NCBI GenBank assembly: GCA_037133055.1
Contig: JBAXOY010000024.1
Span: forward strand, 1 to 29,874
DNA length: 29,874 nucleotides
Origin: Chlamydiota bacterium
Lineage (GTDB): Bacteria > Auribacterota > Tritonobacteria > UBA1439
Direction of reading: 5' to 3'
The notes below the pieces were generated by a model. That model saw only the letters and a program-made list of their open reading frames with translations, searched no databases and was not told where the DNA came from. Numbering within the stretch: the stretch's first letter is position 1; each line of letters opens with the position of its first letter. Below, piece after piece: positions 1 to 19,236 of this stretch. The translations under genes were made by a program, and so were the position numbers.

Positions 1-922
1 TCCTGAACGTGTACGTGGCGCCGTTCGTGACGATGACGATCTGGCCGTTCGCCACCTGGACATTGGAGGCGGTTCCCCCGGCCCCCGCCTCGGTCTGCAG
101 GATCTTCTGCACCCGCACGGTCGGGTCGTTCAAACGGTCGATCGTCTCCTGCGTGGGGTGGCCGAATGAGTTTTGCCCCACCATGATCACGGCGAATTCG
201 GGCAGGACATTCTGGAGAAAGGTGATCGGGGAGCTGTACTTGCTCCCGTGGTGATCGACTTTCAACACGTCGATCTTCCACCCCCTGGCGGCAAGCTGCC
301 CGCCCAGAATCTGTTCCGCACTCGACTCGAGGTCGCCGCAGGACAGGTAGTCGAACCCCCGGAATCTCACCACCACGCCTACGGAGGTCCCGTTCGTGGT
401 CGAGCCGGGATCCTTGTAGGCGCCGTCGATGATATAGCCGTTCGACGTCACGCAGGTGACCGTTGCGTCGCCCCCGGAGTAAAAAACCTGTCCCGGTGTG
501 GTGTTGGTCCAGTCGTACCTCGTGGTCGAACCGTCTATCACGCCGGAAGACTGGAGTTTCGGGTAGCCGCCGTCGTGGTCGCCGTCGGTGTGGGTGACCA
601 CCACCTTGTCGAGGTGCGTGATCCCCAGCCTCGCGAGGAGATCGGATACGTTGGACACCTCCGAGCTCTTCCCCGTGTCTATCAGCATGGTGCTGCGGTC
701 GGGGAAGACGACGAGCGCGGAATCCCCCTGTCCGACGTCTATCGCGTAGATGGTCAGGGTCGAGACAGCGGACCTCAACCCCTCTTCGGCCGGCGTGAAC
801 CCGGCATCGCCGACCCCGGATTGGGCGGGCAGCGCCCGGGCGAAGAGAAGAACCGCCAGCACCGTGAGGGAACCCGCTTTTATGAATGACCATCTGCTGT
901 CATGCATAAGTCTTGGCCTCAT
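1..922 (-). CDS. Secreted ComEC/Rec2-like metallo-beta-lactamase-fold hydrolase (3' end runs off the window; absent from the ORF track)
   Basis: Manual translation from ATG 922 (alternative 907): signal-like LTVLAVLLFARALPA, then TIYAIDVGQGDSALV, MLIDTG, VVTHTDGDHDGG, YLSCGDLE, IDVLKVDHHGSKYSS, GQNSFGHPTQETIDRL. Open to the window edge. Confidence 0.9.
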   Translation of the reverse strand, partial: MRPRLMHDSRWSFIKAGSLTVLAVLLFARALPAQSGVGDAGFTPAEEGLRSAVSTLTIYAIDVGQGDSALVVFPDRSTMLIDTGKSSEVSNVSDLLARLGITHLDKVVVTHTDGDHDGGYPKLQSSGVIDGSTTRYDWTNTTPGQVFYSGGDATVTCVTSNGYIIDGAYKDPGSTTNGTSVGVVVRFRGFDYLSCGDLESSAEQILGGQLAARGWKIDVLKVDHHGSKYSSPITFLQNVLPEFAVIMVGQNSFGHPTQETIDRLNDPTVRVQKILQTEAGAGGTASNVQVANGQIVIVTNGATYTFR

Positions 923-1028
923 GCGAATAGTATAGTGTCCCGTGAATAACTATACAGTTGCCGTCTGCTTCGTTTTTTCGCTGTCCCGACTGTATACATC
1001 CCGGCTCGATCGTCCCAAAGAAGGATAT

Positions 1029-1044
1029 AGCAATTAGTGTGCCA
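1029..1044 (-). promoter_or_regulatory. sigma54 -24/-12 promoter of the ComEC-like gene
   Basis: Minus strand TGGCACACTAATTGCT matches TGGCAC-N5-TTGCW, about 110 nt upstream of the ATG. Confidence 0.75.
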
Positions 1045-1068
1045 GCATTGCCGACTATCTCAGTTGCG

Positions 1069-1187
1069 TAACAGATTGATACTGATGTAGTTAGGGATAT
1101 GAAATGCACTACGGTTTTAAACTGTGCCAAAGATGGCCTTTTCGTGCTGAATTGGAAGGCAAAACAATGCCATAATGGCATTGTTTT
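1069..1187. promoter_or_regulatory. IHF-like site and palindromic enhancer (UAS) candidate
   Basis: Minus-strand TATCAATCTGTTA (1069-1081) fits WATCAA-N4-TTR. Perfect palindrome AAAACAATGCCAT-A-ATGGCATTGTTTT at 1161-1187. Confidence 0.55.
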
Positions 1188-1256
1188 GTCGGCATTACAA
1201 AAGTCGTGAATTCTATGCGGGAAACGAATTGTTCCGCCTCCCAAATACAGCGCCAA

Positions 1257-1391
1257 TTACAAGTTGTAGGGCGAGGCGGGGGACGGAGTGAGGCCGGTGT
1301 CTATCAGGCCGATGACGATCTTGTGCGTCCCCTCGTACCCGAGGGGGATGCCCGGCACCGATACGAGCGTGCCCGCATATCCGTCGGGCAT
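1257..1391 (-). pseudogene. Fragment (copy 1) of the C-terminal domain of the giant and 177-aa proteins
   Basis: Translates MPDGYAGTLVSVPGIPLGYEGTHKIVIGLIDTGLTPSPASPYNL*, clearly homologous to LPDGYRGAVVSVPSIPLGYEGTHKIVIGLID in 3268..3801. Confidence 0.85.
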
Positions 1392-1433
1392 CAGCCAAGC
1401 GCCATTGGGCGGCGGCTGGATGCCCTTGTCGGC
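1382..1433 (-). mobile_element. Degenerate attC-like site downstream of hicA
   Basis: Minus strand GCCGACAAGGGCATCCAGCCG-CCGCCCAATGGCGC-TTGGCTGATGCCCGACG. Arms GGGCATC(C)AGCC / GGCTGATGCCC have one extrahelical base; the AAC/GTT cores are eroded. Confidence 0.6.
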
Positions 1434-1491
1434 ATCGGTTTACGTGGTTCAAGGCGCACAACCACATGGCATGAGGATTGTTCAGTGGTTT

Positions 1492-1707
1492 TCACAAGTC
1501 TTCAGGGGTAAGACCTGTATGTTTTGAAATCCGAACCAACATCTTCGGACCGATCTCTTCACGATCATGAAATGCGAAAACATAACTGGGCCATCCCGGC
1601 CGAGCAAGAATGCGATGAGAGGTACCTGACTGTCTTTTGATTACCCAGCCAATACGAAGAAGAGCGGCGAGGACTTGTTGGGATCTGGTTGATGGCCACC
1701 GGCTCAT
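1492..1707 (-). CDS. hicA: HicA-family toxin (mRNA interferase)
   Basis: 71 aa, LLRIGWVIKRQSGTSHRIL...FAFHDREEIGPKMLVRISKHTGL; start overlaps the upstream stop (ATGA). Confidence 0.88.
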   Translation of the reverse strand: MSRWPSTRSQQVLAALLRIGWVIKRQSGTSHRILARPGWPSYVFAFHDREEIGPKMLVRISKHTGLTPEDL

Positions 1708-1904
1708 GCAGAAACCGCGAACACTTCCTTGAGCTCTGGAATCTCTTCATCATGTTCAAGACGGTCAGCCATGACTCGCAATGCCAATGCTTCTGCCCTT
1801 GCAATGGCTTGCTTGCGAGTATCTCCGTAGACTACGACTCCGGGAAGCTCCGGGATTTCAGCTATCCAGCGGCCGTCATCTTCTCTTTCGATTTCGATCT
1901 TCAT
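1704..1904 (-). CDS. hicB: HicB-family antitoxin (short form)
   Basis: MKIEIEREDDGRWIAEIPELPGVVVYGDTRKQAIARAEAL; ATG 1904 follows AAGGTG. Confidence 0.88.
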   Translation of the reverse strand: MKIEIEREDDGRWIAEIPELPGVVVYGDTRKQAIARAEALALRVMADRLEHDEEIPELKEVFAVSA

Positions 1905-1922
1905 GCAGTCACCTTGGGAAAT

Positions 1923-1952
1923 AGGATACCTCATTCAGAGGGAGGTATGCAA
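1923..1952 (-). promoter_or_regulatory. sigma70-like promoter with an overlapping palindrome for hicBA
   Basis: TTGCAT-N18-TATCCT overlapped by the inverted repeat ATACCTC-N9-GAGGTAT (1926-1948). Confidence 0.5.
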
Positions 1953-2025
1953 TCCTTGTTTTCTTCGTAACCGGGCAAATAAGACCGGAACATGCTGCAG
2001 TAGATGGCATTGAATACAACGTCTG

Positions 2026-2144
2026 CTATGGCGTGGCTACGGTGACAAACTCCTCGTCCCACTAGCGGGGCGAATCGATGAAGTTGTAGGGCGAGGCGGG
2101 GTACGGGAAAGACTAAGGATGGTGTGGTCGATCAGGCCGACAAC
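2026..2144 (-). pseudogene. Fragment (copy 2) of the same C-terminal domain, with frameshift and premature stop
   Basis: 2016-2140 aligns to 3258-3383 with a 1-nt deletion and TAC>TAG at 2062-2064; reads VVGLIDHTI..SFPYPASPYNFIDSPR*WDEEFVTVATP*. Confidence 0.9.
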
Positions 2145-2178
2145 GTCTGGCGGGATCGCCTCCACCTGCTGGCTCGGC
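2136..2178 (-). mobile_element. Truncated attC-like remnant after the DUF2283 gene
   Basis: Minus strand GCCGAGCCAGCAGGTGGAGGCGATCCCGCCAGAC-GTTGTCGGC: complementary ends GCCGA.../...TCGGC and a GTT core right after the stop codon; the central arm appears deleted. Confidence 0.35.
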
Positions 2179-2181
2179 GCT

Positions 2182-2394
2182 CTATCCCGCACTGCGCACG
2201 AGTGGCAATGCATTTGCCTCGATTCGGCTGAGGTCAAGCACATTCTTGGCGTGTTCGATGTCAATGCCAACCGGTTTCCCGTCCTTGTCGAAGTCAAAGA
2301 CGATGCCTGGCGCGACCTCTTTCGCCGTGACACCTGGTCGCTCAATCAGATGGATGTACAACGAATCGGTGTCTGAATGGTAGCTCAGTCTCAT
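2182..2394 (-). CDS. DUF2283-family antitoxin-like protein
   Basis: MRLSYHSDTDSLYIHL...EVAPGIVFDFDKDGKPVGIDIEHA is the typical DUF2283 pattern; coupled (ATGA) to the upstream toxin remnant. Confidence 0.85.
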   Translation of the reverse strand: MRLSYHSDTDSLYIHLIERPGVTAKEVAPGIVFDFDKDGKPVGIDIEHAKNVLDLSRIEANALPLVRSAG

Positions 2395-2545
2395 TGATCT
2401 GCCCTCCGCTGGAAGCTCCGGTCAAAGAATGCGTTAAGAATGGTGACATGGTCGTCTAATGTGACGACGCGCAGATATCGGTTGCCATATTCCGGCACGC
2501 GCCCCCGGAACCGACATCTGCCGTCCGCTTGCTCTTCAACGCGTT
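2391..2545 (-). pseudogene. 3' remnant of the small toxin partner of DUF2283
   Basis: VEEQADGRCRFRGRVPEYGNRYLRVVTLDDHVTILNAFFDRSF resembles the DGR..RYLRVV.L.D..T.HNAFFDR proteins found before DUF2283. No plausible N-terminus or start. Confidence 0.65.
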
Positions 2546-2645
2546 CCTCTTTTGAAATATTTCCGTGTAGCCTTTCGACTCGGAATGACAGTCTTCCATT
2601 GAAGCTCCTTCTTTGATTCGTCGAAGGGAACCATGTGGATCTTCG
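2536..2645 (-). pseudogene. 3' remnant of a BrnT-like toxin
   Basis: IHMVPFDESKKELQWKTVIPSRKATRKYF* resembles the YLVPFVE....FLKTIIPSRKATK.YL C-terminus of BrnT-type toxins; different frame from the adjacent remnant. Confidence 0.55.
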
Positions 2646-2727
2646 GGCGAGCAGATTTCGGGTCACACGTAATCCGAATTCCCGACAATCTGCCTGACCA
2701 TCGTTCGCAAGCGGCGCCAGTTTCCGC

Positions 2728-2787
2728 CACGAACGTTACGGTTTAGCGACGGCGCGTAGCGCCGTCCGCTGCAACCGGTTGTTGGCC
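2728..2787 (-). mobile_element. Integron attC site (60 bp)
   Basis: Minus strand GGCCAAC-AACCGGTTGCAGCGGACGGCGC-TAC-GCGCCGTCGCTAAACCGTAAC-GTTCGTG: AAC and GTT cores around an imperfect hairpin with extrahelical bases. The ORF reads through it as ANNRLQRTALRAVAKP, the classic attC read-through. Confidence 0.8.
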
Positions 2788-2939
2788 ATTATTCTTCTTG
2801 GCTTCAATCGAACCATCGCGAGCGAGTATCTCTTTTGATGTTGGCGAATGTCCGCAAGGATTACGTCCAGATCGAACCCGCATTGCCGTTCGTGTTCATG
2901 CCGGATGCGGCGAACTTCTTCTACGATAGGGTCTTTCAT
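2736..2939 (-). CDS. Small putative antitoxin partner of a PIN-domain toxin
   Basis: MKDPIVEEVRRIRHEHERQCGFDLDVILADIR resembles the family that follows YIETT-type PIN genes; ATGA-coupled to the PIN remnant. Confidence 0.75.
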   Translation of the reverse strand: MKDPIVEEVRRIRHEHERQCGFDLDVILADIRQHQKRYSLAMVRLKPRRIMANNRLQRTALRAVAKP

Positions 2940-3108
2940 GTCACACCTCGTATCAGTTCTTCAGGCGAGCACATCTCCGGGGAAACGTATCCAGCGTTTT
3001 CCACCACAAGCGCCGCGTGGTGTCCTGATGCCCGGCGATCACGCGATTCGAAGACGTTCGCCCAGTAAGGTAACTTACCACGGTCGTTTCGATGTACACC
3101 TTCTTCAC
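2936..3108 (-). pseudogene. PIN-domain (VapC-like) toxin gene with a large internal deletion and frameshift
   Basis: GTG 3108 gives MKKVYIETTVVSYLTGRTSSNRVIAGHQDTTRRLW (PIN N-terminus). Near 3000-3008 it joins out of frame to VENAGYVSPEMCSPEELIRGVT* (PIN C-terminal P.ICTPEEL-like motif). Confidence 0.8.
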
Positions 3109-3114
3109 GCAGCC

Positions 3115-3143
3115 ATTGTACCATTTTTGCCTTCATCGCGCAA
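3115..3143 (-). promoter_or_regulatory. sigma70 promoter for a probably leaderless PIN TA transcript
   Basis: TTGCGC-N17-TACAAT with an extended TG; 6 nt separate the -10 box from the GTG and there is no RBS. Confidence 0.6.
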
Positions 3144-3267
3144 ACAGGCGAGAGGTGAGACCCTACTATTACCTGGATTCGGCGGGACGATCACGGGAAT
3201 CACGTCCACGATGGGGACGAATAAGATTGGAACATCCTGCAGAAGATGGAATTGTACACAACGTCTG

Positions 3268-3801
3268 CTATGGCGTGGCGACAGTAACGAACTCCTCGTC
3301 CCAGTAGCGGGGCGAATCGATGAAGTTGTAGGGAGAGGAGGGGGACGGGAAAGACTGTGGGATGGTGTGGTCGATCAGGCCGATGACGATCTTGTGCGTG
3401 CCCTCGTAGCCGAGGGGGATGCTCGGCACGGAGACCACAGCCCCCCGGTAGCCGTCGGGGAGCGTCACGCTTCGCGCGATCGGGGCTGGTTCCGCGCTCA
3501 GGGAACACGGAGGCGGTCCCGTCAGATACCGGACGCCCCCGCCGGAGAGAAAGATCGCGCCCCAGGCGTCCACCGCTTTGCTTCCATCCAGGGCTTCGAT
3601 ATCCACATCGATCCTGATCGGCCCGAAGAGCTTCGGGCCCGCGGGGCTCACGTTGACGCGGAGTAATGGCTCCGGGGTGGGTGCCGGTGAACTAACCGGT
3701 GTCGGCGACGCCGTCACATCACCACCTGCGTCGCCGTGGATCGGGACCGCAGCTATCGCAATGCAAAGCGCCGCTCCCGCGGCATGTCGAAGGATCTTCA
3801 T
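3268..3801 (-). CDS. Secreted 177-aa protein: signal peptide, P/T/S linker and stand-alone CTD
   Basis: MKILRHAAGAALCIAIAAVPIHG signal; the rest aligns with the last ~125 aa of the giant protein (PKLFGPIRIDVDI..VDAWGAI..YL.GPPPC.LSA..APIAR.VTL..PRYWDE.FVTV). Confidence 0.85.
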   Translation of the reverse strand: MKILRHAAGAALCIAIAAVPIHGDAGGDVTASPTPVSSPAPTPEPLLRVNVSPAGPKLFGPIRIDVDIEALDGSKAVDAWGAIFLSGGGVRYLTGPPPCSLSAEPAPIARSVTLPDGYRGAVVSVPSIPLGYEGTHKIVIGLIDHTIPQSFPSPSSPYNFIDSPRYWDEEFVTVATP

Positions 3802-3825
3802 AATGACACGGGGTCACCGGGCCCC

Positions 3826-6800
3826 TCACGGTAGCGTGACCGTCACGAAGTCCTCGTCCCAGTAGCGCGGGATAAAATGATAATCGGGCGCCGCGGGATC
3901 GGGGGTGACCCCGGTGCCTATCAGCCCGACGACCACCTTGTGCGTCCCTTCGTTCCCAAGCGGGATGCTCGCCACGGACAGCAGGGTGCCGCTGTATCCG
4001 CCGGTGAGCGTCACCCCGCGCGCGATCGGCGCGGCGGTTGCGCTCAACCGGCAAGGCGGCGGCCCTACGAGGTACTGCACACCGCCGGCGGCGGTATAAA
4101 TCGCGCCCCACGCGTCCACCCTCGTGCTCCCGAGAACGCTGGCATCGATATTCACATCTATCCTGAGCGGCCCGAATACCTTGGGATTCGAGGGGCTGGT
4201 GTTGATGATCAACAGTGACGGCAGCGGGGTTAGCGTGGGCGTAAACGTCGGTGTTATGGTGGGCGTGCGTGTCGGTGTTATGGTGGGCGTGGGGGTCGGA
4301 GCCGTCGGGGTGGGCGTGGCGGTCGGGGTGGGTGTGGCGGTCGGGATGGCTGTCGGGGGGGTGACGATCGGCATCATGACAAAATCTTTCCCATTGAGGT
4401 CCGTGTCAAGCAGCGTGACCGATATGGAGACCGGCAAAAATGCGTATCCCTGCTTCGCCGGGGTAATGGTATAGGTGTAGCCGGGGGGGATGCTGGGGAC
4501 CACCAGCCCGTAAATCGTGTAATCCCCATTCTGGTCGGTCATCCCGATCCGGTCGTTGTCTGTGTACGGGGTGGCGTAGCGCGCGTAGAGCTGCACCCTG
4601 TCGGCCGGGGTCGGGATCGGGGTCACTCCCGGGGTCGGGGTCACCGCCATTGTGATGCGTCCGGAAACGGAGTGCGTCCGTGGGCTCGTGAGGTAGTTCG
4701 AGTAATCGATGTTTCCCAGCGCGGGGACGTCGGACTCATCGTAAAGGAACTTTTCGATCAGCGTGGTGTCCGTCGTCAGCCACCAGTTGAACCGGGCGTT
4801 CATGTCCTCCGGGCAGTTATTTTTCACGTTGAAGGTCGCCGAGGGGTTCAATACCCCGAGGAATTCGTTCCCGCCCGTGGGGGCGCTGTTGCCGAGCTTG
4901 ACCGTGCCACACCCGTCTTCCCGCGTGAGCCCCACCCCCCAGTTCTCGAAGACGGTGTTGCTGATGGCGCAGTTTCCCGAGCTCTTCCAATCGACACCCA
5001 TCCCCGACGCGTTCCCCTGGACGATATTGGAGTAGTTCCACGCGAGGCTCGCCGCGCTCTCGCCGAGGATTCCCGCATCAATGCTCGTGCCCGGGAAAAG
5101 CAGGTGCGTCACCATCCGGGCGTTCAGCATCGCCGAGTCGGATATTCCGATCGTGCCGTTCCCCAGCACGGAAAAAACGAGATTCAGGATTGAGGCGTTC
5201 GTCGCCTCGCCCAGCCCGGCGACCGGACAAGACACCGCTGCCGGGGCATCCATGACCGACGATCCCTGCACGGTCAGGATGGCGCTGCCCTTGCCCTCTA
5301 TACCCGTCGCGGTAATGTTGCGGCAGAGGGTTGCCGTGAAAATCGGCGCCGAAGTCCCGTCCGCCGTGATCCCCGTTGTTACCGTGTCGATCGTGCACAT
5401 GTCGAACGCCGGGCAGGTGAACGCCGTGGAGCTGTTCACCGAGATGCCTGTGGCGCAGTTCTCGATATCAGCGTTACGGACCCAGGGGCGCGGGTTGTTC
5501 GCCGCCGTGGCGTCGAGGTTCGACTCGATATCGAGGCCGTATACCGCATACCGTAAGTAGACGCCGTCGATCCAGGAGCTCGCGGTCGTATCGGAAAGGA
5601 CGATTCCGAGCCAGTCGGACACGGCGCTGCCGTTCGAGGTAAGGATTGGGACCGACCCGCCCGCCTCCCCGAGAATATTGATGCGGCCATAGACATCGAT
5701 CTCGCCGCGCTCGCCATCCCATCCGCCGCTCGTATCGTCGCTCAGGGCGTTGAATACAAGAGAGGCGGCCGGCTCCAGTGTCAGGGTGAACCCGGCCGGC
5801 ACCACGAGGTCGCCCGTCATCGTGGCGCTCCCTGCGATAGTCGTGTCGGCGGCGAGCGTCCCCGACCCGCCCACCGTGAACCCGTGCGTCAGCGTCCCCG
5901 ACCCGGCGCTCGTCATCGTCAGGTCATAACTCCCAACCCTCAATCCCGCCGGCACTCGCGCCGAGACCTGCGTCGGGCTCACCACCGCCACGTTCGTGCA
6001 GAGCGTCACTCCGACCGTCACGCCCGTTGTCCCAGTAAAGTTCGTCCCCGTGATGGTGATGTTAGTCGTACCGTTGTTGGGCCCCCCTGTCGGGCTCACG
6101 GATGAAACCACCGGCTCTCCCACGGGCGCCGCGCTTACCGTGTACGCTCCCGCGAGCGTCCCGGCCTGCGCGAGCGGGTTTGTCACGCGAATCGCGTACG
6201 TCCCCGCCGCGATCCCCGACGGCACGTTCGCCGTGAACTGCAACGCCGTTATGAACCGCACGTCCGTGCACCGCGTCGGGTTCGGCGTGGTCATGATCTC
6301 GACTTTCGGGATGTAAACGAATCCCGTCCCGTATACGGTGATCGAGGTCGTCTTGTTCGCGTTGCCGTTGTTCGGGACTATCGGGGAAGTGATCGTCGGC
6401 GTCCCCACCACGGTGTACGCGTTCGCGAGGCCGGCAATGTCCACTGTGAGCGGGTAAAGGCCCGGCGTCATGCCGGAGGGGACCGTCGCCAGAATGCAGG
6501 TCGAGCTGATCAGGCGCACGTTCGTGCACGCCGTGGCGCCGATGGCCACGGTCGGGGACATGACGGAATCGAAGCTCTCTCCCACGACGATGATATCCGT
6601 CGCCGCCGCGGCGAGGCCCATCGGGGGGCTGACGCCGATGACGTTAATCGGCGGGTAGAGCACTTCGTAGCCCGACGCAAGTTCGCCGCACTTCACAGGC
6701 GCCCCCTCGCTGCACGGGGGGTTGCAGACCCGCACGGTGTAGATTCCCCGGTCGATGCCGATCGGGACCTGGGCGGTGATTTCCGTGCTGCTCACGAAAC

Positions 6801-9800
6801 TCTCGTTGAGGCAGGCGGTCGTATCGCCCGTGATGGAATGGATGAGCGTCACGGCGGGCGTGGCGATGAACGCGGTCCCCGTGATGGTAATCTCGACCAC
6901 CCCGTTGTTCGCTCCCGAGGAGGGGCTGACGTTGATCACTGATGGCGCGGGCGGCCCGTTCACCGTCAGCGTCACGTCGTCGTTGGAGCCCTGGCCGTCC
7001 GGGTTGAACACCTGGACCGCCTGCGCGCCCTGGTCGCAGAGGCTCACGAGGTCGGCGGCAGAGATGCGAAAATAGATCGTGGTGGCTGTGGGGCGCGGGT
7101 CGAAATACGGGGAGTCGAAGTTGTAGTACCCCTTGATATCCCCTACGTGGATCTCGGGCGCCCCGAAGAAGTTCCTGCCGCTGATCACGAACGCATCCAC
7201 GTAGTCCTTGTACACCTCCGCGGGCGAGATGCTGTAGACGACCGGAGGCGGCGGGTTGATGATCGTGAACGCCGGGTTCGCGATGTCCGCGCCCCATGTC
7301 GAGGCCTGCGTGTCGGTGTTCGTCACCCGGATCCCGTACCCGCCGAGCGCGAAGCCCGCGGGCACCGTCGCCGTGATCGTTGTCGAGCTCAGGGTCTGCA
7401 CGGTCAACGCATTAAGGTTCACCACGGGCAGCGGGCCGATGAGCGCCGCTGTGGCCCCGGGCCGGAAGTTCAGCCCCGTGATCACCACCTCCGTCGCCAT
7501 CGGCCGATACGCCCAGTGCGTTCCGTAAGGCGGGTTCACCACCCCGTCCGCGCGCCTGATCCCGTACACCGTCGGCGGCGCGAGGTTCGCCAGGTAGTCC
7601 TGCCCGTTTATGTCCGTGTCCGTCACCGTGACCGTGAGCGATGCGGGACTGAACGTGTAGCCCTGCTTTTCCAGCGACAGCGTGTACGTCCCTGGGATGA
7701 GCCCGAACACCGTGTAGTCGCCGTTGTCGTCCGTCATCGCCATCCGATCGTTGTCCGTGTGCGGCGTCGAGTATTTCGCCGTCACCTGCACCCGGTCCGC
7801 GCCCGTGTCTGAGCCGTCGGCGATGCGGCCCGAAACGGAGAATGTCCTCGGGCCCGCGAGGAAGTTCGTGTAGTCGATGTTTCCGAGAGCCGGGTCGTCG
7901 AGCTGGTCGTACAGGTAGTTGTCGATGACCGAGGTGTCCGTCGTGAGCCACCAGTTTGACCGCGCGCTCATGTCCGTCGCGCAGTCGTTCCATACGTTGA
8001 ACGTCGCCGAAGGGTTCATCACCCCCAGAAACTCGTTCCACCCCGTCGTCACCCCGTCGCCTAGATCCACCGCGCCGCACCCGCCCTCGCGCTTCACCCC
8101 CACGCCCCAGCTCTCGATCACCGTGTAGCCGACCGTGCAGTCGCCCGCGCTCTTCCAGTCGATCCCTATCCCCGCGGCACTGCCCTGCACGACGTTGGAG
8201 TAGCCGCACCGCAGAACCGCCGCCTTGTCCCCGACTATCCCCGTCGCAACCTGCTCGTTCGGGAAGAGAAGGTGCGTCACCATCCGCGCCGTCAGGCGGG
8301 CCGAGTCGGAGAGCTCCACCGCGCCGTTCCCGAAGACCGAAAAGATGACGTTCAGGATGGACGCGTTCGCCGCCTCCCCCACCCCCTTCGCCGGGCACGA
8401 GACCGCCTTCGGCGCGTCCACGATCGAGGAGTCGTAGAGCGTGACGATCGCGTTCTCCTTCCCCTGGAGGCCCACCCCGGTCACGTTCCTGAAAAGCACC
8501 TTCGTGAATATCGGCGCCGAGGTGCTCTTCGCAGTGATGCCTGTCACCACCGTGTCGATCGAGCAGGTGTCGATCGCAGGGCAGGTGAACGCGAGCGAGC
8601 TGTTCAACGCGACGCCCGTCGCGCAGTTCGCCACGTAGATGTTGTGGATCCACGGACGCGGGTTCGCGGCTAAGGGCGCGTTGAGGTTCGACTCGAACGA
8701 GAGACCGTAGACCGCGCTCGTGATGTCCGAGTACTCGATCCACGCGGATGCCGTCGTGGCTGAGAACACCACCCCAAGCCAGTCCGACGCCGCGCCCCCA
8801 TTCGAGGTCATCGCCACGCGGTTCGTCGCCTCGCCGAGAAGATCCAGCCTACCATAGAGGCGTATCTCGCCCCGCTCGTTGTCCCAGCCCCCGCTCGAAT
8901 CGTCGGAAAGGGCGTCGAAGACGAGCATCGAGCCTGGCTCAACCGTCAGCGTCACGCCCGCGGGCACCACGAGGTCGCCGGTGAGGGATACCGTGCCCGC
9001 AAGAGTCGTGTTCGCATTCAGAGTTCCCGAACCGCCCGCCGTAAAGGCGTGTGTCAGCGTCCCCGACCCGACTCCGTTCGTCACCTTCAGGTCATGGCTT
9101 CCGACCCTCAGTCCCGCGGGCACCGTCGCCGTGATGCTCGTCGCGGTCACCGTGCCCACCGCGCACGACGTGCCGCCCACCGTCACGGTCGCTCCAGTGA
9201 AGTTCAATCCCGTGATCGTGATGTCCGTCGCCCCGTCGTTCGTCCCGCCCGATGGACTGACGGAGGTCACCACCGGCTCGCCGCCGGGGGGAACATTCAC
9301 CGTGTACGCTGCCGCGAGCGTCCCCGCCTGCGCGAGCGGGTTCGTCACCCTGACATCATACGTCCCCGCCGCAATCCCCGACGGCACGTTCGCCGTGAGC
9401 TGCAACGCCGTGACAAACCGCACATCCGTGCAGCGGGTCGGGTTCGGCGCGGTCATGATCTCCACCTTCGGGATGTAGACGAAGCCGGAGCCGTTCACCG
9501 TGATCGAGGTCGTGTTATTCGCATCTCCGTTGTTCGGCACTATCGGCGAACTGATCGTCGGGACACCCACCACCGTGTAGGCGTTGGTCATCGTCCCCGG
9601 GCCGGCCGGATCCACGTTGTCGACCCTGAAGTCGTAGAGCCCCGCCGCGATCGCCGACGGCACCGTCGCCATCAGGCAGGTCGAACTCACCACGCGCACG
9701 TTCGTGCAGGCGGTCCATGTCGGGGCTTTCCCGACCTGCACCAGGGGCACGCCCGCGCTCGACTTGATGTTGTCGCCGACGACGATGATGTCCGTCTCCG

Positions 9801-12800
9801 CCGTCGCGAGCCCCATCGGCGGGCTCACCCCGTACACGGTTACGAGCGGCTCGAGCACCGTGAACCCTCCCGCAAGCGCGCCGGACCCGCTGTCCGGGTT
9901 GGTGACGACGACATCGTAGGTGCCCGGCGTGATGCCTGTCGGGACCTGCGCCGTGAGAGTCGTGGAATTCGTGTACACGACGTTCATGCAGTACGTCGTG
10001 CCGATCCGCACTGTAGGGGTCGCGATGAAATTGAGCCCCTTGATCGTCACGTCGGTGACCCGGTTATTGGGCCCGCTGTTCGGCACGATTGTGCTGACGA
10101 CCGGGGGCGGCGGGCCGAGCACCGTCAGGGTCACGTCGAAATTAGAGGTCTGGCCGTCAGGGTTGGTGACACTGACAGGCCAGATGCCCGCGGCGAGCGT
10201 TCCCGGGGTATAGCCTATCGACAGGCTGGTGCCGCCTCCGCCGGGGACGAGCGAGGCCCATGTATGCCCTCCTATCGTCGCGTTGCAGCCGGTGATAAAG
10301 TTCTGCCCGGTGATCGTCAGGGAGACACTGTCGTTGTAGTTTATCGGGTTGGGGTCGATGGTGGAGAGCACCGGGGCCGGAGGCGGGACGATCGTAAAGC
10401 CGGGGGCGGCATAGACGGTGTAGGAGTCTCCGGGGGTGTTCACCGCCCCGCCGCTCATCCCGGCGGAGATCAAGAGCGTCTCATAACTCGCCCCCGTGAC
10501 GCCGGTGACGATACCGGTCGATCCGTCCGTCGTGTTGGTGAGATGCGCATAGGGACCGACCTGCCGCGCCTTGAAATCCGTTGCGGTATCGGTGAGCGTG
10601 ACGGCGCTCCCGCCGGTGCAGGTCCCCGAGATGGTGTTGATGCCCCAGATCACCTCCGCGCCGTCGGGGTTCACCACGCGCACCGCGTAGTTTCCTCCGG
10701 CCAGCCCCGCGGGCAGAGTCGCGGTGAGGCGCGTCGAGGTGACCCAGACGACGTTCGAGCAGACGGTGTCCGCGGACGACCCCGGGATCGGCCCCCGGAT
10801 ATACACGGAGGGCGTATCCCTGAAATTGAGGCCGGTGATCACAATATTCGTCGTCTCGCTGATGAGACCCCAGTTCGTCCTGTCCGGGAGGCCGTGCGCC
10901 GCGCCATCCAACCCGTCCGCGCGGCTTACACCCGTGATAAAGGGCACAGGGAGGGTCGCGGTGAAGTCCCGGCCGACGACATCGGAGGGTGTAAAGACCG
11001 GTATGGCGACCGTGATCGTAGCGGGCGAGAATGTGTAGCCAAGCTTGCCCGGCACCACGACATACGATGTCGCGTGGGGGAGGAGACCGTAAATAGTGTA
11101 GTACCCTTCCGCGTCGGTGATGTCCGCCAGCACCGTGTGCCCGGGGAACTGGGCGCTGATGTCGACCTCGACGCGCACCCCCTCGACCGGCTCGTTGAGG
11201 CTGTCTACTATGATGCCGGAAACGGAGTAGGTCCGCTTCCTGTCGGGGCTGCGGTGCGGGATCCAATGTGCCGCTCCAAGGTTGGAATTTTCCGCATTGT
11301 CCCAGATGTAGCGGCTGATGGGACCGTCGTCCGTCGTCGCCCACCAGTTCCCCTCCGCCCAGACCTCGAGCTGGTAGAGGTCCGGGGCGACGGGGGCCGA
11401 CTGTTCCATGCGGATGTTGTACAGGCACAGCGGGTCCTGGACGCCGTAAAACTCGTTCTGCCCCACGCTCGTGACGTATCCGGGAGGCCAGTTTCTCAAG
11501 GTGGACGGGGTAACTGACCCACCACGGTCACCGAGATCTATGTTGTTGTAATCCATGCGTGGCGTGAACCGATAGCTGTCGTATAGGTTAAAGATAGCCC
11601 CGCCTCCAAGCCCGCTGGTCAGAAGAGCGTTATTGGTGCCGCCGGCGTAGTTCCCAATGCTCAGGATGGTGGCGGACACGCCATCGGTAAGGTTGACCAC
11701 GGTTATCCCCACATCCGCCCCGATCTCCAGAAAATCCACCGCATTGTCGACGAGAAGGCTATTGGTGCCTCCGGCAGTGCACATCCCCGTGTAGGGAACG
11801 GCGAACCGCGGTCCCACCATGTGGTAGATGCCGGCCTGGGCATCCACGGAGCCCCAGCGCGCCCAGACGTTGTTCGTGAAGCCGCCGATACGGGAATATT
11901 CAACTTTCAACATCTGCAGGTTGTCGTCCCACTCGATGCCGTTGCCCTGGTCGCCGATGCCGATGATGTTGCAGTTGCTCGCCTCGAGGGCGCACGAGGA
12001 GAGTATTTTCGCGCTCCCGACCGACCGGTACTCGCGGCCGATGATGCCGGAACTCGTCTGGGCGATGGTCGTGTCGGTCATCAGCACGCTGGCGTCCATG
12101 TCGAGGTCCACCAGCCCCGAGGAGAATGCGCACCCGGTGAAAACGGGACTGCAATATTCGGTCGCATAGACGGCCCTGCCGCCCGCGGCGAGGCCGGAGA
12201 TATTGCAGTTTGTGATCGCGGGCGTGCACGCGGCCCAGCACTCGAATCCGAAGCTCGCGTTGATGATCGTGCAGTCGTCCACCGAGGGAGCGGAAGCACC
12301 GTCGAAGAGCATACCCGTGGTGACGTCGTTGATCATACACTGGGAAATGACGGGAGAAACGCCGCCGTAGAGGGGACCGTCGCACGAGGTGAAGTTGATG
12401 CCATAGACGCCGCGGTCGATGTTGCAGTAGCTGATGGTGCCCGTGGCGGTGGTGTCGGAAAAAATAATGCCGAACCATCCGGCGGCGGCAGTGCCCGTGC
12501 TCGTGAGGATCACAATGTCATCTGACGTGCCGCTGATGTTCAGCGTGCCGTAGACGATGAGCTCACTCCGGAGGAGGTCCCATCCCCAGTGCGTGGAGTC
12601 ATAATTTTCCTGAAACCTCACCTCGGTGCCGGGGCCGATATTGAGGGTCGCGTCTTTATCGATCGTCACGTCGCCCGTAACAATGATGGGATTCATTGTC
12701 GAATCCCAGTTCTCCACCCCGTAAATGGTTCCCGCGGTGGTTTGCGCCCGGGAGAGAGAAGGGAAAAATGCGATCACCGCGACGAGGGGGATCAGATATC

Positions 12801-12810
12801 GAAAACGCAT
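3826..12810 (-). CDS. Giant (2994 aa) secreted surface protein/adhesin: parallel beta-helix regions, carboxypeptidase-regulatory-like Ig domains, many IPT/TIG domains, PT linker, CTD
   Basis: Signal MRFRYLIPLVAVIAFFPSLSRA; repeated P.V.SVSP..G.......ITITG.NF...Y.V.VTNP (IPT/TIG); NWW.TTD...I...YD and SVSG.I.D...TD.NG.YTIYGL motifs; PT-rich linker; RBS AAGGAG. Confidence 0.92.
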   Translation of the reverse strand: MRFRYLIPLVAVIAFFPSLSRAQTTAGTIYGVENWDSTMNPIIVTGDVTIDKDATLNIGPGTEVRFQENYDSTHWGWDLLRSELIVYGTLNISGTSDDIVILTSTGTAAAGWFGIIFSDTTATGTISYCNIDRGVYGINFTSCDGPLYGGVSPVISQCMINDVTTGMLFDGASAPSVDDCTIINASFGFECWAACTPAITNCNISGLAAGGRAVYATEYCSPVFTGCAFSSGLVDLDMDASVLMTDTTIAQTSSGIIGREYRSVGSAKILSSCALEASNCNIIGIGDQGNGIEWDDNLQMLKVEYSRIGGFTNNVWARWGSVDAQAGIYHMVGPRFAVPYTGMCTAGGTNSLLVDNAVDFLEIGADVGITVVNLTDGVSATILSIGNYAGGTNNALLTSGLGGGAIFNLYDSYRFTPRMDYNNIDLGDRGGSVTPSTLRNWPPGYVTSVGQNEFYGVQDPLCLYNIRMEQSAPVAPDLYQLEVWAEGNWWATTDDGPISRYIWDNAENSNLGAAHWIPHRSPDRKRTYSVSGIIVDSLNEPVEGVRVEVDISAQFPGHTVLADITDAEGYYTIYGLLPHATSYVVVPGKLGYTFSPATITVAIPVFTPSDVVGRDFTATLPVPFITGVSRADGLDGAAHGLPDRTNWGLISETTNIVITGLNFRDTPSVYIRGPIPGSSADTVCSNVVWVTSTRLTATLPAGLAGGNYAVRVVNPDGAEVIWGINTISGTCTGGSAVTLTDTATDFKARQVGPYAHLTNTTDGSTGIVTGVTGASYETLLISAGMSGGAVNTPGDSYTVYAAPGFTIVPPPAPVLSTIDPNPINYNDSVSLTITGQNFITGCNATIGGHTWASLVPGGGGTSLSIGYTPGTLAAGIWPVSVTNPDGQTSNFDVTLTVLGPPPPVVSTIVPNSGPNNRVTDVTIKGLNFIATPTVRIGTTYCMNVVYTNSTTLTAQVPTGITPGTYDVVVTNPDSGSGALAGGFTVLEPLVTVYGVSPPMGLATAETDIIVVGDNIKSSAGVPLVQVGKAPTWTACTNVRVVSSTCLMATVPSAIAAGLYDFRVDNVDPAGPGTMTNAYTVVGVPTISSPIVPNNGDANNTTSITVNGSGFVYIPKVEIMTAPNPTRCTDVRFVTALQLTANVPSGIAAGTYDVRVTNPLAQAGTLAAAYTVNVPPGGEPVVTSVSPSGGTNDGATDITITGLNFTGATVTVGGTSCAVGTVTATSITATVPAGLRVGSHDLKVTNGVGSGTLTHAFTAGGSGTLNANTTLAGTVSLTGDLVVPAGVTLTVEPGSMLVFDALSDDSSGGWDNERGEIRLYGRLDLLGEATNRVAMTSNGGAASDWLGVVFSATTASAWIEYSDITSAVYGLSFESNLNAPLAANPRPWIHNIYVANCATGVALNSSLAFTCPAIDTCSIDTVVTGITAKSTSAPIFTKVLFRNVTGVGLQGKENAIVTLYDSSIVDAPKAVSCPAKGVGEAANASILNVIFSVFGNGAVELSDSARLTARMVTHLLFPNEQVATGIVGDKAAVLRCGYSNVVQGSAAGIGIDWKSAGDCTVGYTVIESWGVGVKREGGCGAVDLGDGVTTGWNEFLGVMNPSATFNVWNDCATDMSARSNWWLTTDTSVIDNYLYDQLDDPALGNIDYTNFLAGPRTFSVSGRIADGSDTGADRVQVTAKYSTPHTDNDRMAMTDDNGDYTVFGLIPGTYTLSLEKQGYTFSPASLTVTVTDTDINGQDYLANLAPPTVYGIRRADGVVNPPYGTHWAYRPMATEVVITGLNFRPGATAALIGPLPVVNLNALTVQTLSSTTITATVPAGFALGGYGIRVTNTDTQASTWGADIANPAFTIINPPPPVVYSISPAEVYKDYVDAFVISGRNFFGAPEIHVGDIKGYYNFDSPYFDPRPTATTIYFRISAADLVSLCDQGAQAVQVFNPDGQGSNDDVTLTVNGPPAPSVINVSPSSGANNGVVEITITGTAFIATPAVTLIHSITGDTTACLNESFVSSTEITAQVPIGIDRGIYTVRVCNPPCSEGAPVKCGELASGYEVLYPPINVIGVSPPMGLAAAATDIIVVGESFDSVMSPTVAIGATACTNVRLISSTCILATVPSGMTPGLYPLTVDIAGLANAYTVVGTPTITSPIVPNNGNANKTTSITVYGTGFVYIPKVEIMTTPNPTRCTDVRFITALQFTANVPSGIAAGTYAIRVTNPLAQAGTLAGAYTVSAAPVGEPVVSSVSPTGGPNNGTTNITITGTNFTGTTGVTVGVTLCTNVAVVSPTQVSARVPAGLRVGSYDLTMTSAGSGTLTHGFTVGGSGTLAADTTIAGSATMTGDLVVPAGFTLTLEPAASLVFNALSDDTSGGWDGERGEIDVYGRINILGEAGGSVPILTSNGSAVSDWLGIVLSDTTASSWIDGVYLRYAVYGLDIESNLDATAANNPRPWVRNADIENCATGISVNSSTAFTCPAFDMCTIDTVTTGITADGTSAPIFTATLCRNITATGIEGKGSAILTVQGSSVMDAPAAVSCPVAGLGEATNASILNLVFSVLGNGTIGISDSAMLNARMVTHLLFPGTSIDAGILGESAASLAWNYSNIVQGNASGMGVDWKSSGNCAISNTVFENWGVGLTREDGCGTVKLGNSAPTGGNEFLGVLNPSATFNVKNNCPEDMNARFNWWLTTDTTLIEKFLYDESDVPALGNIDYSNYLTSPRTHSVSGRITMAVTPTPGVTPIPTPADRVQLYARYATPYTDNDRIGMTDQNGDYTIYGLVVPSIPPGYTYTITPAKQGYAFLPVSISVTLLDTDLNGKDFVMMPIVTPPTAIPTATPTPTATPTPTAPTPTPTITPTRTPTITPTFTPTLTPLPSLLIINTSPSNPKVFGPLRIDVNIDASVLGSTRVDAWGAIYTAAGGVQYLVGPPPCRLSATAAPIARGVTLTGGYSGTLLSVASIPLGNEGTHKVVVGLIGTGVTPDPAAPDYHFIPRYWDEDFVTVTLP
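4400..10130 (-). repeat. About 3.16-kb (~1050 aa) internal tandem duplication in the giant gene
   Basis: Matching anchors at offsets of about 3160-3170 nt (6151 vs 9313; 4771 vs 7939); e.g. FVYIPKVEIMT.PNPTRCTDVRF.TALQ.TANVPSGIAAGTY occurs twice. Boundaries approximate. Confidence 0.85.
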
Positions 12811-13308: not shown

Positions 13309-14790
13309 TCACGGAAAGAAGAAAGTGGTGCTCGTCAGGTCGCTGCGCCAGTACCGCTCGTTAAACAAGGGCGCGCCCGGGGTATTGAGCAGGCCGTAGA
13401 TGACGTATTTGCCGCTGGGCAGGCCCGGCCCCATCAGGAACACGCCGAGCGTCCCCGAGAATTCAGAACCTATCGCAAAGTTGTGATATACAGCCTTTAC
13501 CTGGCTGTGCCAGCTTCCGTTGTTAAAAAAGTAGAGCTGCCCCGTCGGGAGCAGCACGGCGACATAGGGATCCACCACGTTCAAGGGGTTCCATTGCGCG
13601 GTGTTCTGGAGGGGGATGAGCGTGTAGTTTATCCCCCGGCGGATGCAGATAGCGCACAGCGGGTCCGGATAGGAATCCGTCTCGAGCAGGAGAATGGGCG
13701 TGGTCTGCATGGGGGGAGGATTGGTGATGATCATGTAGTCCACGACGCCGGCATAGGGGGGGAGCCCGGAGAGCGACGGGTCCACGGAAAACGTGTCGCG
13801 GGTGTTGTTCGTGACGGTGAAGAAGCTGCGCACGGTTTTCCCGTCCAGGTTCCCCTCCAGGTACACGTAGAGGCCCTTGAATGCGTCCGTCGCCCAGTCG
13901 GTGGCGCCGGTGATATCCTGGAGGGTGTTCGCGTCCGACGAGACGCACTGCCCGGACGCAACCTGGTCGGCGAGCAGGATTGCACATTGGACCCCCGTGC
14001 GGACACCCGCCATAAACACGCTCGTAGTATAATCGTTCAGGAGCCCGGCGTTGCAATACAGCGTCGTCGAAGTGAACGCGTCGATGAAAAAGCGCTTCCC
14101 CTTCTCGGGCCCGGAGATGACCTCGACCACGGAGTAGAGCACGCTCGCGTCGAACGAGGCGGAGTTCACCTCGATCCTGTTGCATGTCCTGGGGTCGGAG
14201 TCTTCCCAGCATGGCACGTTGCCCACGACGAACAGATAGCCTTCGGATGGGGGAGGCGACGGCACTGGGGTGGGGGTCGGCGTCGCGTCGGACCCCGTCC
14301 CCGTGACGCTGACGTCATCGATGTAGACGTTGAAGGCGTCCGTCGTCGAATTGAGCCTGAACTGAAGATAGATGTTCGTGTGCGCCGACAGGTCGGCGGA
14401 GGCGTTGGTCCAAGCGACGGCGCCGGCGGAGAAGGGACTGCCGGGGACGTTCGTCCACGGTCCGGATGCGGACGTCGAATATTCCACGGTCAGCGACCTT
14501 GTCACGTCTTCGATGAAAAAGTAAAAAGACAGCGCGCCGGGGTTGGGGAGCAGCGGCGTCTTCAGGGAGTCGTTTATCGCATTGACCAATACGCTGTGAG
14601 TCGGGCTTCGGGATGGGGATGGTGGGGTGGTTACCCGATCGCAGCCCTGGCTTATCCATCCGGCCGGAGGGAACCCCGCCCCCTCGAAATTCTCGTTGAT
14701 GAGGTAAGCCCCCGACACGGAAACGGGGTTCGCGGCCCAAAAAAGGAAGTACAGCGCGACCGCGTGCGCGAACAGCGGGATCCTTTTCAT
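13309..14790 (-). CDS. Secreted protein (~493 aa): MAM/cleaved-adhesin-like N-domain, P/T linker, beta-rich modules, divergent CTD
   Basis: MKRIPLFAHAVALYFLFWAANP signal (RBS GAGG); INENFEGAGFPPAGW...YIDDVSVT; C-terminal DPYVAVLLPTGQLYF..FSGTL..PSGKYVIYGLL..RYW. Confidence 0.85.
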   Translation of the reverse strand: MKRIPLFAHAVALYFLFWAANPVSVSGAYLINENFEGAGFPPAGWISQGCDRVTTPPSPSRSPTHSVLVNAINDSLKTPLLPNPGALSFYFFIEDVTRSLTVEYSTSASGPWTNVPGSPFSAGAVAWTNASADLSAHTNIYLQFRLNSTTDAFNVYIDDVSVTGTGSDATPTPTPVPSPPPSEGYLFVVGNVPCWEDSDPRTCNRIEVNSASFDASVLYSVVEVISGPEKGKRFFIDAFTSTTLYCNAGLLNDYTTSVFMAGVRTGVQCAILLADQVASGQCVSSDANTLQDITGATDWATDAFKGLYVYLEGNLDGKTVRSFFTVTNNTRDTFSVDPSLSGLPPYAGVVDYMIITNPPPMQTTPILLLETDSYPDPLCAICIRRGINYTLIPLQNTAQWNPLNVVDPYVAVLLPTGQLYFFNNGSWHSQVKAVYHNFAIGSEFSGTLGVFLMGPGLPSGKYVIYGLLNTPGAPLFNERYWRSDLTSTTFFFP

Positions 14791-14829
14791 GAGGATATCC
14801 TCAAGTCTCAAGACCACGAGTGCCTGTGC

Positions 14830-17076: not shown

Positions 17077-17467
17077 CCTTTTTTTTCTCCTTTTCCACTT
17101 CCGGCCGCAGAGGCACCTCCACCCTTTGTTTCGCGTATTCGAAGACAATGCCTTCAGGCTTTATTTCGACGACGATGCATCCGTTGACCTCCTGCCCCAC
17201 CTCGACGATCTCGTCGCCTATGAGAACCCTCGGATTGACGGGGTCGTAGAGGATCCCGCTCAAATGGTCGCTGAACCACTTTTGGAACGGCGCGGTGTCC
17301 ACGGTGACGCCCACGCCGGCGTGGACCACCGAACCCTGCCCCTCCGCGGGGGGCAGAAACGGATTGCGCCGCCCGTGGCTGTCGTAGACGAACTGCTCTG
17401 CGGACAGTATACCCGCCGGAGCGAAAAATACAAATAATACTATTGCAATCTGAAAATGGCGCCGCAT
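17063..17467 (-). CDS. PilP/GspB-like periplasmic assembly protein
   Basis: MRRHFQIAIVLFVFFAPAGILSA signal, YDSHGRRNPFLP, LSGILYD..RVLIGDEIVEVGQEVNG..VVEIKPEGIVF; lies between pilO and pilQ. Confidence 0.8.
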   Translation of the reverse strand: MRRHFQIAIVLFVFFAPAGILSAEQFVYDSHGRRNPFLPPAEGQGSVVHAGVGVTVDTAPFQKWFSDHLSGILYDPVNPRVLIGDEIVEVGQEVNGCIVVEIKPEGIVFEYAKQRVEVPLRPEVEKEKKKDERK

Positions 17468-17507
17468 GTGAGTCCGGTCCCTTTTAGACGCCCGCAGCCT
17501 TAAGATT

Positions 17508-18113
17508 TCACTTCTTCGTTTCCGCCGCGACTGGCTTTGCCTCGAACCCCTTCCTGACAAGGTAGCGAACGAGGAGCACAACCTTCTGGCCAGTCGGCTC
17601 GTTGCCCTCGATGGAGACGTCCGTGATCTCGATGAACCTGTTCGTGCCCTCGATCCCGGCGAGAAATTTCCCAAGCTCGTGGTATCCGCACTGCATCTTG
17701 ATCTCCCACGTCTTCTCGGCGTACTTCGCCTTGAGGTCCGCGTCGAGGGAGGAAATCCCCGCCGCCACGGGGATAAAGCGCTGGCTTACGTCCCCCACCC
17801 CTGACTGCCTGGCTATCGCATTGATTTGCCGCGAAAGCCATGTTTGATCGGTTTCCATCGGTATGTCGTTCGCCGCCGTATCGATCTTCGACTGGAGGTC
17901 TACGACCTCCGCCCGCTGCTGGGGGAGGTGCAACACCATCATCTCGGCCTTGAGAAGCTGATCTCGATATGAGCCGGGAGACTCCTGCTTCTCCCTGCCT
18001 TTGGATCCTTTGGCGAAGGGGGAGGGCCACATCTGCCAGGCGACGATGACCGCCAGCAGGCTGAAGATCACGGCAACCGCGATGAGCTCGATCTTCTTCT
18101 TTTCGATTGGCAT
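17508..18113 (-). CDS. pilO: Type IV pilus assembly protein PilO
   Basis: N-terminal TM, coiled coil, IP.ETD..WL..INAIARQSGV, CGYHELGKFLAGIE..RFIEITDVSI. Confidence 0.88.
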   Translation of the reverse strand: MPIEKKKIELIAVAVIFSLLAVIVAWQMWPSPFAKGSKGREKQESPGSYRDQLLKAEMMVLHLPQQRAEVVDLQSKIDTAANDIPMETDQTWLSRQINAIARQSGVGDVSQRFIPVAAGISSLDADLKAKYAEKTWEIKMQCGYHELGKFLAGIEGTNRFIEITDVSIEGNEPTGQKVVLLVRYLVRKGFEAKPVAAETKK

Positions 18114-18124
18114 ACCTACCTAAA

Positions 18125-18400
18125 AAGGTTCAAACAGTTCAAGCGGTTCAAGCTGTAATCCGCGTTCATCCGCGCCGATCCGCGTCCCAATCGTCATTCC
18201 TTTTAGCCTCGAATCATTTTTGATCTGCGCTCATCTGCGTCCAATATCCTCTTGCCGTTTCCCATCACGCCCACACGCCGATACGCCCTCACGCCCACAC
18301 GGCTGTTCTCTCCGTGTCCTTCGTGCCTTCGTGGTGAGAAGCTTTTGTTCAAGCGGTTCAATCGGTAATCCGAGTTCTTTCGCGTCAATCCGCGGTAAAA
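18125..18400 (-). repeat. Modular periodic-repeat array (A-B-C-D-A-A-B) between pilN and pilO
   Basis: Modules read on the minus strand: A GGACGC(A/G)GATGAACGC(A/G)GAT; B GCTTGAACC/GTTTGAACT 9-mers; C CACCACGAAGGCACGAAGGACACGGAG; D GTGTGGGC 8-mers. Confidence 0.9.
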
Positions 18401-18423
18401 CATCCATCCCGACCGAAGAGCAA

Positions 18424-19011: not shown

Positions 19012-19024
19012 GGTAACGCCAAAA

Positions 19025-19225: not shown

Positions 19226-19236
19226 CAACGTTTCCG

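Follow-up and report, generated by a model that had tools for sequence, protein, structure and literature searches.

We analysed a 29,874-nt stretch of DNA (hereafter the window), contig JBAXOY010000024.1 (C24) of the Chlamydiota bacterium genome GCA_037133055.1 (G000). In this window, a gene for a giant predicted secreted protein is followed by a block in which ends of a shared C-terminal domain are mixed with toxin-antitoxin (TA) genes, integron-type attC-like sites and halves of a repetitive extragenic palindromic (REP)-like element. All window features between positions 1 and 12810 lie on the minus strand. For comparison, a family set of 8 genomes (G000 and seven relatives) and 53 genomes outside the family were used. 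The features of the giant gene and the block are as follows, in order of transcription:

3826..12810, minus strand: giant predicted secreted protein, 2994 aa, with TIG/IPT repeats, a beta-helix, CarboxypepD_reg, a Pro/Thr linker and the C-terminal domain
4215-3829, minus strand: C-terminal domain of the family in the giant gene, after the Pro/Thr linker
3268..3801, minus strand: stand-alone domain gene, intact; the 177-aa product has an N-terminus that by eye resembles a signal peptide, then a PT linker and the domain
3214..3268, minus strand: left half of a ~106-nt palindromic REP/REPIN-like element (REPIN, REP doublet forming hairpins), starting at the stop codon of the stand-alone gene
2936..3108, minus strand: PIN (VapC-type) toxin pseudogene, ~100 codons deleted, keeping residues 1-37 and 137-157 of ~159 in different frames
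2736..2939, minus strand: cognate antitoxin-like open reading frame (ORF), 67 aa, open and running into attC1, with homologues in 6 of the 7 PIN loci compared
2728..2787, minus strand: attC1, a canonical 60-nt site with R''/L''/L'/R' spacing (fold z -2.2)
2639..2714, minus strand: 3' remnant of a diverged second PIN toxin, interrupted by a stop and lying directly behind attC1
2535..2640, minus strand: 3' remnant of a BrnT-like toxin, 90% identical to an intact gene at locus L046 of a closer relative
2391..2540, minus strand: 3' remnant of a DUF4258-like toxin, a weak assignment (E 0.08 to annotated DUF4258, E 3e-4 to unannotated proteins)
2182..2394, minus strand: intact DUF2283 gene (Pfam E 3.6e-15)
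2138..2178, minus strand: attC2, a degenerate left half without an L' box (fold z -0.8, no better than shuffles)
2026..2144, minus strand: fragment 2, the final ~39 codons of a stand-alone-type domain, disrupted by an internal TAG and by the deletion of 1 nt
1957..2026, minus strand: second, truncated REP-like copy after fragment 2, identical to the first at 44 of 55 nt
1492..1904, minus strand: hicB-like gene (1904-1704) and hicA (1707-1492), matched in Pfam, the only intact TA pair in the block
1382..1433, minus strand: attC3, with perfectly complementary L'' and L', an R'' one A short and an R' replaced by domain sequence (fold z -2.9)
1257..1388, minus strand: fragment 1, 43 codons of the second half of the domain, cut at both ends, in an open frame

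Four homologous domain segments thus stand in series (4215-3826, 3801-3268, 2144-2026 and 1388-1257), as the initial annotation of this DNA had described. The layout is not an assembly artefact, which that annotation had considered, because independent contigs without a single difference cross the tested junctions. These came from runs X3 to X7, which belong to studies other than the likely source, within a check of 8 of 18 sequencing runs that used contigs only. With at least 31 nt on each side, they span giant/stand-alone (X5, 3601-3951), stand-alone/PIN (X3, 3035-3333), attC1 (X4, 2532-3292), attC2/fragment 2 (X5, 1947-2192) and attC3/fragment 1 (X4, 1159-1888). Two kinds of discordant record were set aside as probably coming from other organisms: one in X4, of depth 2 and 88% similarity, that links 2140 to 3026 across 20 letters that do not match, and a skip of 1569-1857 in X2 and X3 (21-nt side). 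The described alternation of domain ends with TA cassettes is real in its order, with the DUF2283, HicA and HicB-like genes recognized by Pfam, but hicBA alone is still an intact pair. Three of the four TA modules lack a working toxin, and all toxin remnants are 3' ends; the supposed PIN TA cassette turned out to hold a dead toxin, reduced to the two pieces listed above. DUF433 was tried for 2714-2639 and rejected in favor of the second PIN remnant.

Sites of the attC type are built from boxes in the arrangement R''/L''/L'/R'. Both fragments begin at the right-end position of an attC-like site, and each of the three sites is followed by a 5'-truncated gene end. Since the end behind attC1 is that of the second PIN toxin and not of the domain, this pattern is not domain-specific. 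The earlier statement that both fragments directly follow attC-like sites therefore holds for their position, with attC1 and attC3 as good sites, but attC2 is a left half only. The last letters of attC2, AGACGTTGT, are also the first 9 nt of the REP-like element, and the fragment 2 junction starts G|TT, which matches the REP end as well. Because these nine bases form the junction, it may be REP-derived and not the product of an integrase crossover. The fragment 1 junction starts G|GA or GG|AT within a 7-nt microhomology, as the last 7 nt of attC3, CCCGACG, are common to the Pro-Asp-Gly codons of the domain. Among six pattern matches to the attC3 arms from other genomes, two end in GTTAGG, while a plasmid search with attC3 gave chance matches only. 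In run X15, many diverse contigs end at attC1. Elsewhere in G000, a permissive scan returned ~100 mostly chance matches, from which five single attC-like sites were picked by eye (C1:20382, C7:11020, C11:62, C15:19799 and C52:1400); those on C1 and C11 adjoin TA genes (PIN, BrnT). None of the five lies within 6 kb of a domain end, as they are at least 6 kb away or on contigs free of the domain, and the coupling of domain and attC is therefore local, not a system.

Both fragments resemble the stand-alone gene (90% identity for fragment 2 and 81% for fragment 1) more than the giant copy (72.5% and 74.4%, exact matches being no longer than 11 and 12 nt). Fragment 1 had been described as intermediate between the two intact copies. 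It belongs instead to the stand-alone lineage: 14 informative sites are common with the stand-alone copy against 7 with the giant, the longest exact match to the former is 26 nt, and identity to the L046 domain end reaches 93%. The site sharing and the L046 identity also rule out a chimera of the two intact copies. A 9-nt insertion is found in the stand-alone copy and in fragment 2; fragment 1 is without it, and also lacks the 3' end, stopping before the last strand of the fold. Because fragment 1 diverged from the stand-alone copy under purifying selection (ratio of nonsynonymous to synonymous differences, pN/pS, 0.18, p=0.0015, 30 codons), its codons mark it as a remnant of a stand-alone-type gene that once worked. 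Fragment 2 likewise has a raw pN/pS of 0.18 (36 codons, frameshift codons excluded). Its synonymous differences had been taken as the sign of a formerly functional paralog. The differences exist, but when polarized with L046 three of the five fall on the branch of the intact gene, and the changes of fragment 2 itself comprise 2 synonymous, 1 missense and 1 nonsense besides the 1-nt deletion, all small counts. Both fragments are likely without function. Of the tests that the initial annotation had proposed, the one for selection also points to purifying selection on the stand-alone gene, judged by its pN/pS of 0.38 against the giant copy and 0.12 against L046, and the one for gene conversion found no tract between the two intact copies (p=0.38).

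The REP-like half consists of the 55 nt that follow the stop codons of the stand-alone gene and of fragment 2, and it was absent from the initial annotation. Domain end and REP half together form a duplicated block of 164 nt with 89% identity. A cassette 5' end or an attI had been considered for the post-stop segment, and the REP-like identification replaces both. Matches to the element occur in all 8 family genomes. In G000 it is found at five places, two of them beside a transposase: halves flank a Y1_Tnp ORF at C20:26243-27078 (L078:1244-2079), and three relatives show the same layout around similar ORFs (L115, L116 and L117). G000 has eight Y1_Tnp genes, of which the one on C20 was looked at for flanking repeats. 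REP pairs also bracket an AbiE-like TA pair and a Fic-like gene at L127:1482-3290 and L126:1112-2645 (names by eye), and in G002 the stop codon of the giant gene lies inside the GTAG of the element. Stop codons coincide with 32 of 63 REP-like elements, a count taken without a random control. Five of the 63 lie within 60 nt of a domain end, but three of these were seeds of the model and one is the window's own, so that enrichment at domain genes is not shown. Compared with REP/REPIN systems and their REP-associated tyrosine transposases (RAYT), as excerpted from PMC3333891, PMC6006769 and PMC3337134, the element is similar in being palindromic, extragenic and located at gene ends, in its G(T/C)AG start, in the halves that flank a Y1 transposase gene and in a full form of two joined halves. 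It differs in its length of ~106 nt with terminal inverted repeats (TIR), nearer to the 'double-foot' or TIR type described there, and in its low copy number.

The initial annotation had pointed to related genomes for variation in order, and the site does vary, with no TA cargo or a different one. In G001, G002 and G004 the giant gene is followed ~0.2-0.7 kb on by a glycosyltransferase-like gene, with no TA match between; there is a single domain copy, and neither cassettes nor fragments are found at the site (loci L042-L045 repeat two of these three and were not counted again). The conserved glycosyltransferase-like gene of G000 is on contig C72. Because these three relatives have the two genes without cassettes, everything between them in G000 is likely a lineage-specific accretion. 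The L046 locus carries a stand-alone-type domain end, a BrnT-like TA pair, an attC-like site and HicBA-like genes, and then the glycosyltransferase-like gene. The fragment-1-like end is open and complete there, and the L046 contig does not reveal which gene it ends. No relative examined has two stand-alone-type copies, and a search of genome contigs for related loci confirmed 0 of 599 candidates.

The repeated piece itself belongs to a much wider family. A hidden Markov model iterated on the genome's own matches found 61 domains in G000 (48 at E<=1e-5), 56 of them ending within 15 residues of the frame end and many following a Pro/Thr linker. An independent search with a 32-row alignment gave 36 matches in G000 and 6-41 in each of the other seven family genomes. 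Thus, the domain is present in 8 of 8 genomes of the family and in 0 of the 53 outside. None of the 32 aligned rows matches Pfam, and NCBIfam returned only three single-member matches, all with E>0.04. In a representative protein library 247 clusters matched at E<=0.001, and among the 150 clusters listed the domain is mostly at the very end, several being short stand-alone proteins. The stand-alone protein was modeled as a nine-strand beta-sandwich (mean model confidence, pLDDT, 87); a fold search with the domain model gave generic Ig-like matches only (best Z 8.9, root-mean-square deviation 3.0 over 102 residues), and a structure atlas returned unnamed clusters only. The domain is an undescribed ~120-aa Ig-like terminal module carried by dozens of unrelated predicted secreted proteins. 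It is not the variable tip of one adhesin, because it is conserved family-wide at the ends of many unrelated proteins. Its position makes a sorting or anchoring signal its likely role. The C-terminal domain (CTD) of the type IX secretion system (T9SS) is a C-terminal sorting domain of secreted proteins, and the module resembles it in its Ig-like beta-sandwich and its place at the extreme C-terminus of many unrelated predicted secreted proteins, after a linker. Unlike the T9SS CTD, it has no Pfam or NCBIfam match, is confined to one uncultured family among the genomes searched and has no sorting machinery identified with it; a search for Por_Secre_tail and SprA gave no match in G000, but the control genomes likewise gave none.

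Examples of the domain are found at C53:3798-12927 and C71:93-6142, with a weak match in the window at 13333-13623, and domain genes form tandem runs of six on C53 and four on C71. Orphan 3' domain pieces without an attC alongside were seen on C153 and C188 of G000 and, by eye, on C19 of G002 and C18 of G007. At L080:3964-4113 (G002 C19), a signal peptide and short N-terminus are fused straight to the 3' half of the domain, apparently by internal deletion.

From these observations we favor, with moderate confidence, the reading that the block is a decayed orphan attC/TA cluster at a variable hot spot, in which the domain fragments are probably scars of recombination events that ended at attC sites. 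The unit involved would have comprised a domain 3' end with its REP half, a TA module and an attC. Joining of the attC right end to a site within the domain gene would have been the work of a visiting integron integrase (attC x attG) or of slippage on CCCGACG, a 7-nt match. Homology at the domain would then have let the unit back in, from a sister chromosome or a related strain, and a truncated domain end would have stayed behind the attC. Two such events are envisaged, and later deletions would have killed three of the four toxins. On this view the domain probably served as a conserved landing anchor for TA modules, which were the variable cargo; rhs loci have it the other way round. This reading is in line with the 3' gene remnant behind every attC-like site, the duplicated domain end and REP half, the variable cargo of relatives, the closeness of fragment 1 to L046 together with its divergence under purifying selection, the BrnT piece shared with L046, the ~94% variants of the stand-alone gene in two lake runs and the integron integrase IntI found above cut-off in 2 of the 8 family genomes (G003 and G006). 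Insertion by IntI at GWT sites, and imprecise excision that deletes pieces of chromosome, have been obtained experimentally according to the excerpted study (10.1101/2022.09.11.507474).

Several points weigh against this reading. No IntI above cut-off was found in this genome (92% complete) or in the two other genomes of its genus; the best TIGR02249 match in G000 scores 85 bits against a cut-off of 265, and none is on C24. The attC3 junction is G|GA and not GWT, unless the spacer is 7 nt; attC2 has no L', and the REP end accounts for its junction equally well or better; and the attC-like site of L046 folds weakly (z 0.05). If the oldest piece simply lay farthest out, the most distal one, fragment 1, should be more decayed than fragment 2, but it is less so. 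No rearranged joint at an attC was seen in the 8 runs, which is not evidence of absence because the runs were available as contigs only. Plain deletions from a tandem array give the same junctions, and the two routes are indistinguishable here. We regard as unlikely the stronger version, in which an integrase joined attC to sites in the host gene and made hybrid circles with a chromosomal coding piece as homology anchor, so that TA cassettes could re-enter one fixed locus without attI or a resident integrase. If true, it would be a natural capture of host DNA into cassette-like units and a reversal of the rhs displacement logic.

The tandem array just mentioned, which we rate as somewhat unlikely, would start from three complete stand-alone genes with TA cassettes between them; deletions starting from attC hairpins, by imprecise excision or slippage, would have removed the 5' parts of the second and third genes, and the fragments would again be dead scars. 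Tandem runs of domain genes and orphan 3' pieces without attC elsewhere, as on C53, C71, C153 and C188, speak for it, as do the divergence of fragment 1 under selection and the toxin remnants being 3' ends too. Against this, it needs a prior triplication of a rare subtype, as a search for proteins of near-equal length found only three homologues besides the query among 386 candidates, and none of the relatives examined has even two copies. Duplication driven by a RAYT seems less probable still: a Y1 transposase acting on a REP half would have copied it along with the adjacent gene end and cargo. Both duplicated ends do carry a REP half, the fragment 2 junction opens with the first 9 nt of the element, halves flank Y1 transposase genes in G000 and three relatives, and in L127 and L126 TA-like or Fic-like genes lie between paired REPs. 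In addition, the E. coli TnpA-REP cuts far from its own REP and was proposed to sequester gene fragments, as stated in excerpts of PMC3333891. However, fragment 1 starts at an attC end and not at a REP, so the mechanism would fit fragment 2 only; the C|T position at which the E. coli enzyme is reported to cut coincides with neither junction, and the element is rare in G000.

The initial annotation had offered a silent reservoir, like the orphan modules of rhs and cdi loci, in which the fragments would serve as spare C-terminal variants, kept in place by TA modules and able to recombine into the giant or stand-alone gene. If true, surface proteins would be varied in a new way, but the evidence points the other way, and the idea, already largely refuted, is very improbable. 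What can be said for it is the open frame of fragment 1 with its 26-nt exact match to the stand-alone copy, and an arrangement that recalls rhs C-terminal displacement in the excerpted account (PMC2935791): behind an intact gene come copies of its 3' end that are truncated at the 5' side and lie in DNA of lower GC, and circle formation with homologous re-entry would explain the window locus as well. Fragment 2, however, is disrupted by a frameshift and a stop codon, the final strand of the fold is missing from fragment 1, and no conversion signal was detected. The copies are homologous, so that none would bring a new function, dozens of unrelated proteins end in the domain, none of the three relatives with the giant gene has fragments here, and three of four toxins are destroyed. 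DNA identity to the giant copy is 72-74%, whereas 91.6% amino-acid identity is reported for rhs cores in that account (PMC2935791); moreover, there are no non-homologous tips and no immunity genes, and here the repeated piece is the conserved part while the cargo varies. Because these two defining features, a near-identical anchor and non-homologous tips with immunity genes, both fail, the locus is not an rhs/cdi-type reservoir.

The decayed-cluster reading finds its closest parallel in attC-site clusters with no integron integrase and single attC sites without one (CALIN/SALIN), attC cassettes without an integrase at attG sites, as excerpted from 10.1101/2022.09.11.507474. Common to both are two good attC sites and a broken one, TA cargo, a genome without an IntI above cut-off, junctions at the attC right end and isolated attC sites elsewhere. 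The window locus differs in its interleaved host gene 3' ends and REP halves, in one junction that is not a clean GWT and in the destruction of most cassettes. In effect it behaves as a CALIN in decay that bears displacement scars of the rhs kind. The other proposal of the initial annotation, a recurrently amplified unit of domain and cassette, comes close to the reading favored here: domain 3' end and REP half are duplicated, the cargo differs each time and relatives vary at the site. The coupling is local.

As for the genes around the block, 'adhesin' may serve as a candidate label for the giant protein, whose orthologues have 3032 aa in G002 and 2922 aa in G004. Genes for pilMNO and a secretin (window 13312-20301) lie just upstream in the same orientation. 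In a phylogenetic tree the stand-alone gene pairs with P0002 (support 94/99), with the giant copies outside that pair in no resolved order, and two lake runs contain variants of this gene at ~94% identity (record 20 of X6 and record 26 of X7). P0002 and window 3268-3801 are 85% identical in the domain and have unrelated signal-like N-termini, a difference that suggests swapping at the PT linker. Two features lie downstream of fragment 1:

927..1227, minus strand: ~300-nt AT-rich repeat before the next gene, with a TGGCAC-N5-TTGC motif at 1044-1030
1..922, minus strand: 5' half of a metallo-beta-lactamase-fold gene, with its 3' half likely at the end of contig C72

The motif in the repeat is one that we take to be of sigma-54 type. 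Four further full or partial copies (C37:17684-17966, C120:5753-6051, C154:3510-3710 and C181:2251-2308) are 82-86% identical; there is a 14-bp perfect inverted repeat at 1160-1188, and among the seven relatives partial matches occur in G007 only. This intergenic module may be a portable promoter. At its start, C24 has an open ORF that aligns with residues 17-301 of a paralog on C19, and residues 304-670 of that paralog are matched by the open ORF at the end of C72. Because these parts are consecutive, the two contigs, which have no shared terminal overlap, likely abut through one metallo-beta-lactamase-fold gene. Its 3' half on C72 ends in another subfamily of the domain and is followed by the glycosyltransferase-like gene.

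A literature search, judged from its entries alone, found no description of such a mixture of domain ends, attC sites, TA genes and REP elements. The locus is a natural and well-preserved record of mixing, at one site, between host gene ends, REP elements and orphan integron cassettes, and it bears on how CALINs form and decay and on how host DNA could enter cassettes. The domain, a by-product of this analysis, may matter more, as a candidate sorting or anchoring signal present in every searched genome of one uncultured family.

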